Origin: Gemmatimonadales bacterium
GTDB taxonomy: Bacteria; Gemmatimonadota; Gemmatimonadetes; Gemmatimonadales; GWC2-71-9
Reading direction: 5' to 3'
Assembly: GCA_038321865.1 (NCBI GenBank)
Contig: JBBQFH010000009.1
Coordinates: forward strand, 49,711 to 113,710
DNA length: 64,000 nucleotides
In this document: positions 6,631 through 15,664 of the stretch, one piece after another
How positions within the stretch are numbered: position 1 is the first letter of the stretch
Layout: each line of letters begins with the position of its first letter
The notes under the pieces: generated by a model
Database searches by the model: none
The model's input: only the letters and a program-made list of their open reading frames with translations
Told to the model about the DNA's origin: nothing
Position numbers and translations under genes: made by a program

Positions 6631-7389
6631 ATGAGCGCGCTGATCACGCTGCTCACCGATTTTTCCAACGCCGATTCCTACGTCGCGGAGATGAAGGGCG
6701 TGCTGCTGAGTGCGCTCCCCGCGGCGACACTGGTGGATGTGACGCATCTGATTCCGCCGGGCGATGTGCGGAGCGCCGCTCACGTACTTGCCCGGGTCTG
6801 GCGCCGTTTCCCGGCGGGCACCGTGCATCTCGCCATCGTGGACCCGGGCGTCGGCACCGCACGGGCGGCGCTGGCGGTGTCCACCCGCGGCCACTACTTC
6901 GTCGGCCCCGACAACGGCGTGCTCACGCCCATCCTAAAGGACGAGGTCGACATCGTGGCGCTGCCGACGCCGGCCGACGCCGCGCCGACGTTCCACGGCC
7001 GGGACCTGTTCGCGCCCGCCGCGGCCGCGATCGCGTCGGGTCGGCCCATGCGCTCGCTGGGTCCCCGCTTCACCGGCTTGCCCGTTCGCCTCACGTACAC
7101 GGAGCCACATTACGAGGGTAAGAGCGTCGTCGGTGAGGTCGTATACGTCGACCGGTTCGGGACGCTGGTGACCAACCTGACGCCGGAGCTGGTGCCGCCG
7201 TATGCGCGGCTCGAGATCGAGGGCGTCGACGCCGGACCGCTCCGCCGCACGTTCGGGGACGTGCCGACGGGCGGCCTGGTGGCCTATCTCGGTTCCAACG
7301 GCGACGTGGAGGTGGCGGTGCGCGACGGCTCCGCGGCGCGGCGGCTGGGAATCGGCGTCGGCGGAAGGGTGCGCGCCCGGCTGGGCTGA
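6631..7389 (+). CDS. DUF62 SAM hydroxide adenosyltransferase / SAM-dependent chlorinase-fluorinase family
   Basis: ITLLTDF, VDPGVGTAR, GPDNG, TFHGRDLFAP, YVDRFG. Confidence 0.88.
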   Translation: MSALITLLTDFSNADSYVAEMKGVLLSALPAATLVDVTHLIPPGDVRSAAHVLARVWRRFPAGTVHLAIVDPGVGTARAALAVSTRGHYFVGPDNGVLTPILKDEVDIVALPTPADAAPTFHGRDLFAPAAAAIASGRPMRSLGPRFTGLPVRLTYTEPHYEGKSVVGEVVYVDRFGTLVTNLTPELVPPYARLEIEGVDAGPLRRTFGDVPTGGLVAYLGSNGDVEVAVRDGSAARRLGIGVGGRVRARLG

Positions 7390-7414
7390 GGGTTCACTCG
7401 ACTCGGAGGCGGCG

Positions 7415-8257
7415 ATGCGTCCCCTGCTCGTGGCGCACCTGGTCGGCGCGGGGTGGGGCAGGCTGGCGCCGCTGGTGCCGACGGACGGCGCGGTCTACGC
7501 GATCCTGTTCATCGCGATCACGCTGCTCTTCCTCAAGCGGTGCGGCGATGTCGGACTGCAGGCGGAGGAGTCCCTCGGTGGGGCGGTCAGCGGCGCAGGC
7601 GGCGCAATCGCCGGCAGCCGGCTGTTCTTCCTGATCACCACCGGCGCGCTGGTCCGCACCTCTCCGGCGCAGTGGGTCAATCTCGGCGGCGGCACGGCGT
7701 CGTGGGGCGCATACCTCGGTGGCATTGCGGGTCTCGCGACGTTCTGCCGGTTCTCGTCGGCGTCGTTCTGGGTCATGGCCGACGTCGGAGCCTCCTGCGC
7801 CGGGCTGAGCGAGGTCATCGGACGCTGGGCATGCCTCCTTGCCGGCGATGATTTCGGCCGGGTCAGCACGCTGCCGTGGGCCATCCACTTCCCGCCCGGC
7901 AGCTTCGCGTACCGCGCGCATGCGGCGCGAGGGCTGCTGGAGGCCGGCGCCACGCAGTCGCTCGCCGTGCATCCGCTGCAGATCTATCTCATGCTGAATG
8001 CCGCCGTCGTGTTCGCGCTGACGACGCTCGCGTGGCGCCGCTGGCGGAACGCACCCGGCCGCACGCTCGCCACCTTTCTGCTGCTGCACGGCGCGACGCG
8101 ATTCTGCTGGGAATTTCTCCGTGATCCTGATGCCGGCGGCGCGCGCGGCCTGCTGTCAGTGTCGCAGTGGACCTGTCTGGGAATGGTGGCGGCGGGAGTC
8201 CTGCTGGCGATACGCCTGCGCGGAATGCGGAGCGAAGTGCCGGCCGCCGCATCGTGA
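7415..8257 (+). CDS. Divergent prolipoprotein diacylglyceryl transferase (Lgt) paralog
   Basis: GGAGG RBS; GSRL, GRWACLLAGDDFG, LPWAIHFP, HPLQIY, RFCWEFLR, SQW; multiple TM segments. Confidence 0.8.
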   Translation: MRPLLVAHLVGAGWGRLAPLVPTDGAVYAILFIAITLLFLKRCGDVGLQAEESLGGAVSGAGGAIAGSRLFFLITTGALVRTSPAQWVNLGGGTASWGAYLGGIAGLATFCRFSSASFWVMADVGASCAGLSEVIGRWACLLAGDDFGRVSTLPWAIHFPPGSFAYRAHAARGLLEAGATQSLAVHPLQIYLMLNAAVVFALTTLAWRRWRNAPGRTLATFLLLHGATRFCWEFLRDPDAGGARGLLSVSQWTCLGMVAAGVLLAIRLRGMRSEVPAAAS

Positions 8258-8267
8258 TGCGGCGGCC
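8242..8267. terminator. GC-rich hairpin between convergent lgt paralog and small ORF (putative bidirectional terminator)
   Basis: GGCCGCCGCATC-GT-GATGCGGCGGCC perfect 12-bp inverted repeat over the lgt stop; no U-tract. Confidence 0.55.
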
Positions 8268-8277
8268 TCCCCGCCAA

Positions 8278-8391
8278 TCAGTTCGGTGCCGAGTACGATT
8301 TGCAGGCGGCGAGGGTCACCAGGCCACTGAAGACCATCAGCACCAGCACCAGCAGGCGCGCGCGCAGGCTCTGCGGAACGAAGGAACGCAT
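8278..8391 (-). CDS. 37-aa small prolipoprotein MRSFVPQSLRARLLVLVLMVFSGLVTLAACKSYSAPN
   Basis: Hand-translated; AGGAGG 5 nt before ATG; basic n-region, hydrophobic h-region, lipobox LAAC (C30). Confidence 0.75.
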   Translation of the reverse strand: MRSFVPQSLRARLLVLVLMVFSGLVTLAACKSYSAPN

Positions 8392-8514
8392 CCTGTCCTC
8401 CTGAGTGAATCGGCGTCGCCCGGTACCGGGATGGCACCGGATCGGCCGGAAAACCTACGGGTGAGACCTGCCGCCAACATGCAGCCCGGCCTGCGGCGGG
8501 GCAAGGCCGCCCGG

Positions 8515-9126
8515 TCAGGGAGGCGCGGCGGCGAAACCGCCGCGGAGCCGCAGCAGCGCTCGGCGGAAGAACCCGAACAGCTTCCAGATGATGAACGTCG
8601 CCAGCACGACCAGCACGATCACGATCGCGCCGGTTAGCACCGGATGCGTCGAAGCCAGCCAGCTCAGGCCGATAACGATCGCATCCTCGCCGAGGCTCAA
8701 CGCCCAGTTGCTGAACGGCTCGGGACTGGTGTTCGCCGCCGCACGCATGGACGCCTTCGCGCCGTGGGACGAGAGTGCCACGCCCCCCGCCAGCAACGCC
8801 GCCGCCAGCTTCCATGTCTCGGGCACCGCACCGAACGCGCTGTAGCCGATGAGTGCGGCCGCGGGCGGCCGGATGAAGGTGTGCACGGCGTCCCAGGCGC
8901 TGTCCACGACCGGAATCTTGTCGGCGACGAATTCAATCACGAACATCACCGCCGCGATGCCGATGATGAGCGGATTGGCCAGAATCTGGAGTGACGCGGG
9001 CAGCTGGACGACCCCGAAGCGCTGGAACAGCCCGGCGGCGGCCACCGTGGCGTAGAGATTCAAACCCGAGGCGAACGACGTACCGAGGGTGAAGCCGAGC
9101 GTCTGGAGCGGGCTCAGTTCACCCAC
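8515..9126 (-). CDS. DUF4126-family membrane protein
   Basis: ASGLNLYA, EFVADKIP, WDAVHTFIRPPAAA, SLGED; GTG start overlapping end of upstream gene. Confidence 0.8.
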   Translation of the reverse strand: MGELSPLQTLGFTLGTSFASGLNLYATVAAAGLFQRFGVVQLPASLQILANPLIIGIAAVMFVIEFVADKIPVVDSAWDAVHTFIRPPAAALIGYSAFGAVPETWKLAAALLAGGVALSSHGAKASMRAAANTSPEPFSNWALSLGEDAIVIGLSWLASTHPVLTGAIVIVLVVLATFIIWKLFGFFRRALLRLRGGFAAAPP

Positions 9127-13272: not shown

Positions 13273-14754
13273 ATGGCGATCGACAATCTGCGCGAGTTCA
13301 TCAGGGCCATCGACGGCATCGGGGAGCTCGCGCGCGTCACACACCCGGTGCGCGCGCGGCTCGAGGTCGCCGAGATCGCCGATCGCGCCATGAAGAGCAA
13401 GGCGGGCGGACCTGCGCTGCTGTTCGAGCACGTGCTCCTCGACGACGGCTCGCGGAGCCCGCACCCCGTTGCCATCAACCTCTTCGGCTCGATGCGCCGC
13501 ATGTGCCTGGCGCTCGGCGTCGAGAACCTCGACGAGATCGGCGGCCGCATCTCCGAGCTGCTGGAGATGAAGGTGCCGGAAGGGCTGTTCGGCAAGCTGG
13601 CCATGCTGCCCAGGCTCGCGGAAGTCGCGAAGTTCCCGCCCCGCATCAGGAGCGGGCGGCCACCCTGTCAGGAAGTCGTGCTGCGGGGGACCGAAATCGA
13701 TCTGGGCCGAATTCCGTTTCTGACCACCTGGCCCGGCGATGGCGGCCCCTACATCACACTGCCGATGGTGATCACGACCGATCCCGCGCGCGGCACCCGA
13801 AACGTCGGCATGTATCGCGTCCAGGTGCTCGGCCGCGACACGCTGGCCATGCACTGGCAACGGCACAAGGTCGGCGCAGCCCACTGGCGCGAGATGGCGA
13901 CGCGCGGCGAGCGCATGCCCGTGGTGATCGCCCTCGGAGGCGATCCGGCCAGCGTCTACTCCGGCTCGGCCCCGCTCCCGCCGACCATCGACGAGTTCAT
14001 TTTCGCCGGCTTCATCCGGCGCTCGCCGGTGGACCTGGCACGCGCCGTCACCTGCGACCTCGACGTGCCGGCCGAGTCCGAGATCGTGATCGAAGGATAC
14101 ATCGACCCCGCCGAAGCGCTGGTGCTGGAGGGACCATTTGGTGACCACACGGGGTTCTATTCGCTGGCCGATCTGTATCCCCGCGTCCACGTCACCGCGG
14201 TCACGATGCGGCGCGACCCGGTCTACGCCGCGACTCTCGTGGGCCGGCCGCCGATGGAGGATTACTACCTCGGCCACGCCACCGAACGAATCTTTCTTCC
14301 GCTGCTCCGGCTGACGGTGCCGGAGATCGTAGACTACCACATGCCCGCGCCCGGCATCTTTCACAACCTCGTGTTCGTGGCGATCGACAAACAGTATCCA
14401 GGCCAGGCCTACAAGGTGATGAACGCGATGTGGGGCCAGGGGCTGATGTCGCTCGCCAAGGTGCTGGTGATCGTGGACAAGGATGTAAACGTCCGGGATC
14501 CCGACGAGGCGTGGTGGGCCGCGCTCAACAACATCGATCCGGAGCGCGACGTGCGCTTCTCCATGGGGCCGGTGGACGTGCTCGATCACGCCAGCCGCGC
14601 GTTCACCTACGGGAGCAAGATGGGCATCGACGGCACGCGGAAGTGGAAGGAAGAGGGCTTCGATCGTGAATGGCCCGGCGTGATCGTGATGGACCCCGCC
14701 ACGAAGCAGCGCGTGGACGAGATGTGGCCGAAGCTCGGGATCACGCTCTCGTGA
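13273..14754 (+). CDS. ubiD: UbiD-family decarboxylase (menaquinone pathway, MqnL-like)
   Basis: RNVGMYR, EGPFGDHTGFY, GRPPMED, IDKQYPGQA, KMGIDGT. Confidence 0.93.
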   Translation: MAIDNLREFIRAIDGIGELARVTHPVRARLEVAEIADRAMKSKAGGPALLFEHVLLDDGSRSPHPVAINLFGSMRRMCLALGVENLDEIGGRISELLEMKVPEGLFGKLAMLPRLAEVAKFPPRIRSGRPPCQEVVLRGTEIDLGRIPFLTTWPGDGGPYITLPMVITTDPARGTRNVGMYRVQVLGRDTLAMHWQRHKVGAAHWREMATRGERMPVVIALGGDPASVYSGSAPLPPTIDEFIFAGFIRRSPVDLARAVTCDLDVPAESEIVIEGYIDPAEALVLEGPFGDHTGFYSLADLYPRVHVTAVTMRRDPVYAATLVGRPPMEDYYLGHATERIFLPLLRLTVPEIVDYHMPAPGIFHNLVFVAIDKQYPGQAYKVMNAMWGQGLMSLAKVLVIVDKDVNVRDPDEAWWAALNNIDPERDVRFSMGPVDVLDHASRAFTYGSKMGIDGTRKWKEEGFDREWPGVIVMDPATKQRVDEMWPKLGITLS

Positions 14755-14767
14755 TCGGCCGCAGCGC

Positions 14768-15664
14768 GTGACGGCCCTCCGCGAGGGTCAGACGTTCGCC
14801 GGCGAGTCGCTGCTTGTCCGCTATGTCAATTTCGTCAGGCTGCCGCACACCCTGTTCGCGCTGCCGTTCGCGCTACTCGGCGTCATCGCCGCCTCGCGGC
14901 ATGCTGTGGTCGGCGCTCGCGTCATCGCGCTCGTCGCCGTGGCCTTCTCGGCGGCCCGCTGGGTCGCGATGGGGTTCAACCGCATTGCCGATCGCCGGTT
15001 CGATGCGGAAAATCCGCGGACCCGGGGGCGAGAGTTGCCCCGCGGCGCGCTGACGCTCACGCAGGCCTGGGGCTCGGTCCTCATCGCGGGCGTCATCTTC
15101 GTCCTTGCGGCCGCCCTGCTCAATCCGCTCTGCCTGCTGCTCAGCCCGCTGGCGCTCGTGTGGGTCACGACCTACAGTCTCTCCAAGCGCTTCACCTGGT
15201 GGCCGCACCTGTGGCTGGGCGCCAGTCTCGCCATGGCGCCGGTCGGTGGATACCTCGCGGTGGCGGGACGCTGGAGCGATCCGGCGTGGGTCCTCCTCGC
15301 GGCCGCGCTCGCGGTCGCGACCTGGGTCGCGGGGTTCGACATGTTCTACGCCCTGCCCGACGAGGCGTTCGATCGTGCGCGCGGCCTCCGCAGTGCCGTC
15401 GTCCGGCTCGGCCAGCGCCGGGCCATTCTCGCGGCGAAGCTCCTCCACGGGGTCACCATTCCCGCACTGGCGCTCTTTGGTCATGGCGCGGGCTTCGGCG
15501 GCTGGTACTACGCCGGCCTGCTCGTCGCCGGCGCGATCCTGCTCTACGAGCACCGCCTCGTCCGCCCGGGCGAGCTCTCCCGGCTCGATGCCGCCTTCTT
15601 CACGATGAACGGCGTGATGTCGGTGACGGTCTTCGCGTTCGCGCTCACGGATCGGCTGCTGTGA
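14768..15664 (+). CDS. ubiA: UbiA-family polyprenyltransferase (MqnP-like)
   Basis: HTLFALPFA, NRIADRRFDAENPRT, GFDMFYAL, FFTMNG. Confidence 0.9.
   Translation: MTALREGQTFAGESLLVRYVNFVRLPHTLFALPFALLGVIAASRHAVVGARVIALVAVAFSAARWVAMGFNRIADRRFDAENPRTRGRELPRGALTLTQAWGSVLIAGVIFVLAAALLNPLCLLLSPLALVWVTTYSLSKRFTWWPHLWLGASLAMAPVGGYLAVAGRWSDPAWVLLAAALAVATWVAGFDMFYALPDEAFDRARGLRSAVVRLGQRRAILAAKLLHGVTIPALALFGHGAGFGGWYYAGLLVAGAILLYEHRLVRPGELSRLDAAFFTMNGVMSVTVFAFALTDRLL

Follow-up and report, generated by a model that had tools for sequence, protein, structure and literature searches.

A spare Lgt-family gene and a 37-residue prolipoprotein-type reading frame in Gemmatimonadales: a two-gene cassette that may make a very small lipopeptide

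Does a second member of the Lgt family, lying tail to tail with an open reading frame (ORF) of 37 codons, form an enzyme–substrate pair that makes a ribosomal lipopeptide, or is the small ORF an accident of its position? The question is raised by a locus within a 64,000-nt stretch of a Gemmatimonadales genome (the window, in its entirety), where an initial annotation had proposed that a dedicated Lgt paralog may lipidate, in RiPP-like fashion, a product too short to fold. The features on which the argument turns are these, in window coordinates.

7390..8514, no strand: two-gene cassette, 1.1 kb, between a SAM-hydrolase-family gene and a DUF4126 gene; absent at this site in the relatives G002 and G003
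7415..8257, plus strand: Lgt paralog, 280 aa (PF01790), with TASWGAY where E. coli has MSFHGG, and a GGAGG ribosome-binding site (RBS) upstream
8278..8391, minus strand: 37-aa prolipoprotein-type precursor, with a basic n-region, 17 uncharged residues, LAA-C30 and the mature part CKSYSAPN
8397..8402, minus strand: AGGAGG ribosome-binding site, 5 nt before the ATG of the 37-aa ORF; kept in G005
8242..8267, no strand: GC-rich palindrome with an 11-bp stem and a 4-nt loop, over the lgt stop; weak and not conserved
6631..7389, plus strand: flanking gene of the SAM hydroxide adenosyltransferase family (PF01887/PF20257), outside the cassette
8515..9120, minus strand: flanking DUF4126 gene (PF13548), outside the cassette

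The 37-aa ORF, which the initial annotation had picked out by its RBS and its lipobox, bears the marks of a genuine gene. Its sequence reads as first quoted, AGGAGG occupies 8402..8397, and L-A-A-C30 does leave 8 mature residues, with no Cys beyond that of the lipobox. As judged from its sequence, the precursor has the anatomy of a lipoprotein signal as set out in PMC8048626, its basic n-region being provided by R2, R10 and R12, and the LAAC box fits the consensus [LVI][ASTVI][GAS]C (PMC4728403). A scan of the 3.4-Mb genome, in which lipoboxes were called by our own regular-expression filter, returned 23 ORFs with a lipobox and a mature part of at most 30 aa; five have any RBS-like word and the 37-aa ORF is the sole one with a full AGGAGG, which makes it unlikely that chance placed it beside a spare lgt. 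Its GC content at the three codon positions (0.61/0.47/0.84) is of the coding type. A counterpart in the same genus (G005) keeps the frame, the RBS and the lipobox, and over codons 1–30 the two genes have 12 identical, 4 synonymous and 14 non-synonymous codons, leaving 16 of 30 residues identical, 4 of them through synonymous changes. The mature parts of these two peptides barely align; the Y-S-A-P of the mature part is common to the peptide of G171. The 37-aa peptide matched no family in Pfam or NCBIfam and gave no usable match in the ESM Atlas. That the ORF is a truncated or frameshifted longer gene was considered and rejected, because the frame past its stop enters lgt in antisense and the G005 counterpart is short as well.

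Its neighbor is a convergent Lgt-family gene, as first described (PF01790, 120.4 bits against a cut-off of 24.9), and is intact; the two stops lie 20 nt apart. The protein scores 74.4 bits with the housekeeping equivalog model TIGR00544, under the 118.9 cut-off. Its predicted structure (pLDDT 94.7) has a single match in the PDB at E ≤ 0.001, namely E. coli Lgt (5azb; TM 0.68, E 1e-8). Residues essential in E. coli (PMC4728403, PMC8689077) have equivalents in the paralog, with E. coli numbering in brackets: Y28 (Y26; assigned by position, as it lies outside the printed pairwise alignment), R137 (R143), G148 (G154) and R229 (R239). The equivalents of E243 and R246 are kept too, and those of R143, G154, R239, E243 and R246 are near-invariant across the paralog clade. 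The paralog differs from the E. coli enzyme at H103 (W97), N146 (C140) and Y235 (H225). The first change is found in 165 of 173 clade rows and the second in all 173, and His at the third position, where Tyr is essential in E. coli, in 11 of 173 including this copy. The canonical Lgt of the same genome has Y, C and A at these positions and is thus also unlike E. coli. Natural variation of H103 to Y, W or F and of N146 to C is described for other Lgts in PMC13251419, which also ties H103 and arm-2 to substrate specificity. A dead enzyme on account of H103→W was considered and rejected, since Tyr occupies this position in the canonical copy and the paralog retains the arginines.

A FastTree tree was built from 195 rows (every locus row, and database rows thinned to boundary scores plus four). 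In it the paralogs form a clade with a support of 99, far from the canonical Lgts of the lineage, and those relatives that bear organism names are Gemmatimonadales. Their occurrence is patchy: 20 of 401 genomes of the family, 12 of 401 across the phylum and 4 of 145 in another order. A scan of genome contigs with the paralog protein as the single query yielded 19 distant Lgt loci, all outside this clade, which were reused as controls, and 25 pattern matches on viral contigs gave no confirmed case. Separately, the paralog is frameshifted in three genomes, G361, G315 and G244 (loci L149, L150 and L151); sequencing error is likely, since L149 and L150 have split neighboring genes as well.

Is the paralog simply the housekeeping enzyme of its genome? 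The initial annotation had named this as one of the cases that would undo its reading, and it does not apply here: there are two PF01790 genes in the genome, and the other, of housekeeping type, lies directly after tsaD (PF01790, 181 bits; TIGR00544, 117.3 bits against 118.9). Lgt acts first in the pathway and LspA follows. The genome has one LspA gene, and no Lnt was found in this 89.85%-complete assembly; among five relatives, Lnt exceeds the cut-off in one (G022; not in G005, G003, G023 or G120). The genome holds more than 100 lipobox ORFs despite having no Lnt match, and these lineages may N-acylate their lipoproteins by another route or not at all. As an observation in its own right, the record P0142 is a PF01790 Lgt that continues at its C-terminus into an Rce1/CPBP intramembrane protease. 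In NCBIfam the protease scores best with myxosortase models, in every case under the cut-off (Mrt_core, 97.7 against 100), and the fusion is a candidate enzyme for attaching lipid to C-terminal sorting signals that contain Cys.

The pair had been placed between two unrelated operons, and the families of the flanking genes bear this out. Comparison of this site among relatives is informative. Two genomes of the same genus lack the cassette here: in G003 a gap of 6 nt separates the SAM-hydrolase-family gene from the DUF4126 gene, and in G002 the same two genes are adjacent. In G004 a different gene occupies the site; none of these three genomes (completeness 66–87%) has the paralog or a significant match to the peptide profile. 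In G005 both cassette genes are present at the site, their ORFs overlapping by 31 nt. G001 has the paralog there on a contig that ends at residue 99, and the counts do not include it. The two genes of the cassette are thus gained or lost together. A functional link to the flanking genes was rejected, because neighbors differ by lineage and the site is empty in relatives.

The perfect 12-bp hairpin that had been described between the genes stands in part: there are 12-nt arms at 8242–8253 and 8256–8267, with a 2-nt spacer, and they overlap the last lgt codons and the stop. Folding yields 11 bp and a 4-nt loop at a z-score of about −2, 7 of 200 shuffles fold as well, and there is no U-tract. The hairpin is not kept in G005 and was rejected as a conserved element; it is possibly a terminator or a pause site. 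The two cassette genes begin alike (GGAGG-N5-ATGCGT; 74% over 19 nt, 7405–7423 against 8383–8401), a likeness that is probably just that of an RBS plus Met-Arg. Elsewhere in the window there are two tandem amino-acid permease paralogs (PF13520; 1020–2588 and 2684–4198) and an adjacent pair of UbiD-family and UbiA-family genes (13273–15664), presumably for quinone synthesis.

If the two genes belong together, short lipobox ORFs should also be met beside other members of the clade, and the flanks of homologous paralogs do hold them, beside or fused to some. A strict scan (RBS and lipobox, mature part of at most 60 aa, within 1.7 kb) found such an ORF at 9 of 22 paralog loci in genomes and at 1 of 57 in metagenomes, the metagenome loci being drawn from the best 80 of 155 confirmed matches, 31 of the 57 having 400 nt on both sides. 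The controls gave 1 of 72, made up of one doubtful case among 30 canonical lgt loci and none among 42 other Lgt loci; one of the canonical loci (L023), and one tree row too, come from an unpublished genome (G019). Looser searches add G171, with a QAC box, and the loci L105 and L065, and three further paralog loci from another order have no short partner in them, so that the totals with a short partner are 10 of 25 genome loci and 3 of the 57 metagenome loci from those best 80 of 155. The paralog does not always have such a neighbor: of the 22 genome loci, 12 lack a short partner, and no partner was seen in these scans at four g18 loci or in G348, G372, G244 and G106. Most short partners come from one genus (g19), and the counts are therefore not independent; Fisher and Mann–Whitney p-values overstate the case, as kin are not independent. 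The peptide-profile search was largely circular, in that 9 of its top 10 matches were seeds and the sole new one was G361.

The arrangements vary: convergent (this genome, G005 and G197), divergent (G023 twice, G212, G120 and G315), tandem (G171 and L105) and one gene away (G361, L065 and L079). In P0035, known from three slightly different full-length records (NCBI, ENA and Logan), the Lgt, the signal, the lipobox and a 29-residue peptide are fused in frame, and an internal Met might allow separate translation of the peptide. Ser, Asp and Gly abound in the mature parts of the partners, which are 8–29 aa long (58 in G197), and several from g19 carry a C-x-x-G-[YFQ]...C pair. The signal is better kept than the mature part, and the residues before the Cys vary widely across partners. 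Going by these sequences, the substrate beside the paralog often looks like a mini-peptide in this family.

What, then, might such an enzyme read in its substrate? The uncharged stretch before the Cys is 16–20 residues long in the short partners (median 18.5, n = 12); in the longer lipobox ORFs of this genome it spans 10–18 residues (median 13, n = 116). A permissive scan within 400 nt, designed post hoc after the neighbors of the paralogs had been seen and with about 4% per locus expected from this genome, matched 11 of 22 genome and 10 of 57 metagenome paralog loci (these again from the best 80 of 155), and none of 72 controls. The extra partners are proteins of 124–716 aa, several with Ig-like domains, and the boxes of the large partners include SWNC, SWSC, GGIC, GFIC, GVNC, VSPC and C-x-C. 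The stretches of ten large partners are also long (median 17.5 against 15, n = 83, under the same filter), and for this reason the clade looks like an accessory Lgt set beside long-signal or atypical-box substrates. Small size itself may favor long signals, however, since orphan short ORFs have stretches of 14–18 residues. Stretches of 16–18 residues are seen in such ORFs of G064, G194 and G230, genomes in which a canonical lgt was the only PF01790 match (completeness 81–93%); these three ORFs were chosen with a profile biased to long signals. The orphan of G230, CKNDSNAPN..., resembles the mature CKSYSAPN, and two other short candidates in this genome have stretches of 16 and 14.

Two further observations belong with these neighbors. 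In G020 (L157:4209–7052), three tandem proteins with C27 and S-C-[GE]-C-D-D boxes lie 2.6–4.6 kb from the paralog, the two that were scanned having Ig-like domains. Short lipobox ORFs that are orphans and whose mature part has a second Cys pair were found at L185:1504–1659 (with a repeated NWQGSGT), L190:1501–1629, L194:658–816 and G000:C13:1284–1427, and are possibly unrecognized lipopeptide or RiPP precursors.

We put at about an even chance the reading in which the locus is a mobile two-gene cassette of an accessory Lgt and its cognate mini-prolipoprotein, with the following route to the mature peptide. The precursor would insert N-in into the inner membrane through its hydrophobic stretch of transmembrane length; the paralog, its substrate-side motif altered by H103→W and perhaps tuned to substrates with long signals or atypical lipoboxes, would transfer diacylglyceryl from phosphatidylglycerol to Cys30; and the LspA of the genome would cut off the signal to give S-diacylglyceryl-CKSYSAPN. 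As Lnt was not found, this product would probably stay diacylated or be N-acylated by another enzyme. It would most likely act as a small membrane-resident lipopeptide and not as a folded protein, with the anchor and a short head, polar or disulfide-looped, carrying most of its function; conservation of the anchor together with variation of the head favors such a lipopeptide over a sequence-specific signal. Of the steps in this mechanism, function is the weakest. The original notion of a dedicated Lgt making a ribosomal lipopeptide survives in reduced form: recurrent pairing, the fusion and joint gain and loss speak for it, while many partners are large or absent, a RiPP tailoring enzyme is lacking, and short lipobox ORFs where only a canonical lgt was found weaken it further. 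A bolder version, which we entertain tentatively and think doubtful, would make this a separate class of ribosomal lipopeptides whose sole tailoring enzyme is a dedicated Lgt clade reading a signal of transmembrane length, to which the housekeeping Lgt is poorly suited, and yielding diacylglyceryl-Cys peptides of down to 8 residues with signaling or membrane activity of their own; the clade would in addition embody an overlooked second sorting code (long h-region; N, S, P, I or L at −1; C-x-C) for large surface proteins.

How else might the locus be explained? The paralog could be a general accessory Lgt for long-signal or atypical lipoproteins genome-wide, the mini-ORF being just one of its clients, linked to it and open to processing by the housekeeping Lgt too, since its LAAC box is canonical. 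In g18 and in some genomes of g19 the paralog does occur with no peptide beside it, its partners elsewhere include large Ig-like and BNR proteins, orphan mini-lipoproteins exist, and two lgt copies are present in ~1,300 of 13,512 genomes (PMC13251419). Yet exactly these two genes are gained and lost jointly, and their linkage is repeated in four layouts and in the P0035 fusion; we judge this explanation unlikely, if worth keeping in view. It is decidedly improbable that the precursor is lipidated at Cys30 and left uncleaved, to remain in the membrane as a single-pass micropeptide that might, for instance, regulate the paralog or form a subunit of it. The transmembrane length of the uncharged stretch, the better conservation of the signal and the placement of a helix at the enzyme C-terminus in P0035 are what such a micropeptide would have, but all 11 aligned precursors have at −1 the Ala or Ser that LspA needs, and the Cys pair in several mature parts suggests a selected head group.

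The possibility that the 37-aa ORF is a functionless stump of a once larger surface-lipoprotein gene draws on the large lipoproteins that often adjoin the clade and on the G000 (this genome) and G005 mature parts, so hard to align. It sits poorly with an RBS, an ATG, a frame and a lipobox preserved in two genomes although their paralogs share only 61% identity, with the fusion and the 13 or more separate short ORFs, and with the Y-S-A-P common to G171, and we regard it as very improbable. Enterococcal pheromones are cut from lipoprotein signals, and a signal that is the best-kept part of a precursor with a minimal mature part recalls them; since the cassette includes no receptor or peptide-processing gene and the pre-Cys residues vary widely among partners, a released signal peptide as the active product seems barely credible.

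Measured against known systems, the two-gene cassette is real and is a variant of known chemistry. The likeness to E. coli Lgt (PDB 5AZB/5AZC; PF01790) lies in the fold and in the kept equivalents of Y26, R143, G154, R239, E243 and R246; the paralog differs in being accessory, patchy and below the TIGR00544 cut-off, in adjoining its presumed substrates, and in having W, C and H at H103, N146 and Y235. With the DAG-RiPPs (DybA/DybH and NedA/NedBC) it shares a short ribosomal lipobox precursor that becomes, here by prediction, a diacylglyceryl-Cys lipopeptide; that class is defined by an MNIO tailoring enzyme and uses the endogenous lipoprotein pathway, according to PMC13056109. The cassette, by contrast, brings its own Lgt and consists of two genes only, with no MNIO or other tailoring enzyme, and is therefore not a DAG-RiPP member; its 37-aa precursor also falls below the 50–160 aa mining window given there. 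Second lgt copies are described in Streptomyces coelicolor, in Mycobacterium smegmatis (MSMEG_5408) and on a plasmid beside conjugation lipoproteins, and resemble the present case in lying near lipoprotein genes and in carrying N146C; the accessible portions of that source (PMC13251419) describe no pairing with mature peptides of 8–29 residues and no preference for long signals. In the literature covered, the pairing was not found described; Table S2 and Fig. S8 of PMC13251419 may include the clade. Entericidins are small bacterial lipoproteins with short lipobox precursors, from which the 37-aa ORF differs in having no Pfam match, an 8-residue mature part and a linked private Lgt.

How Lgt selects its substrates, and why about one in ten genomes carries a second lgt, are posed as open questions in PMC13251419. 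The cassette offers a minimal natural enzyme–substrate pair (280 aa and 37 aa, and even a natural fusion) and with it a testable rule, namely that signal length and lipobox type would decide the substrate. It would extend DAG-RiPP-like chemistry to peptides under the usual mining cut-offs, it suggests that substrates with atypical boxes are missed by lipoprotein predictors, and, as far as sequence can tell, it points to a dedicated route by which these bacteria may make very small membrane lipopeptides.
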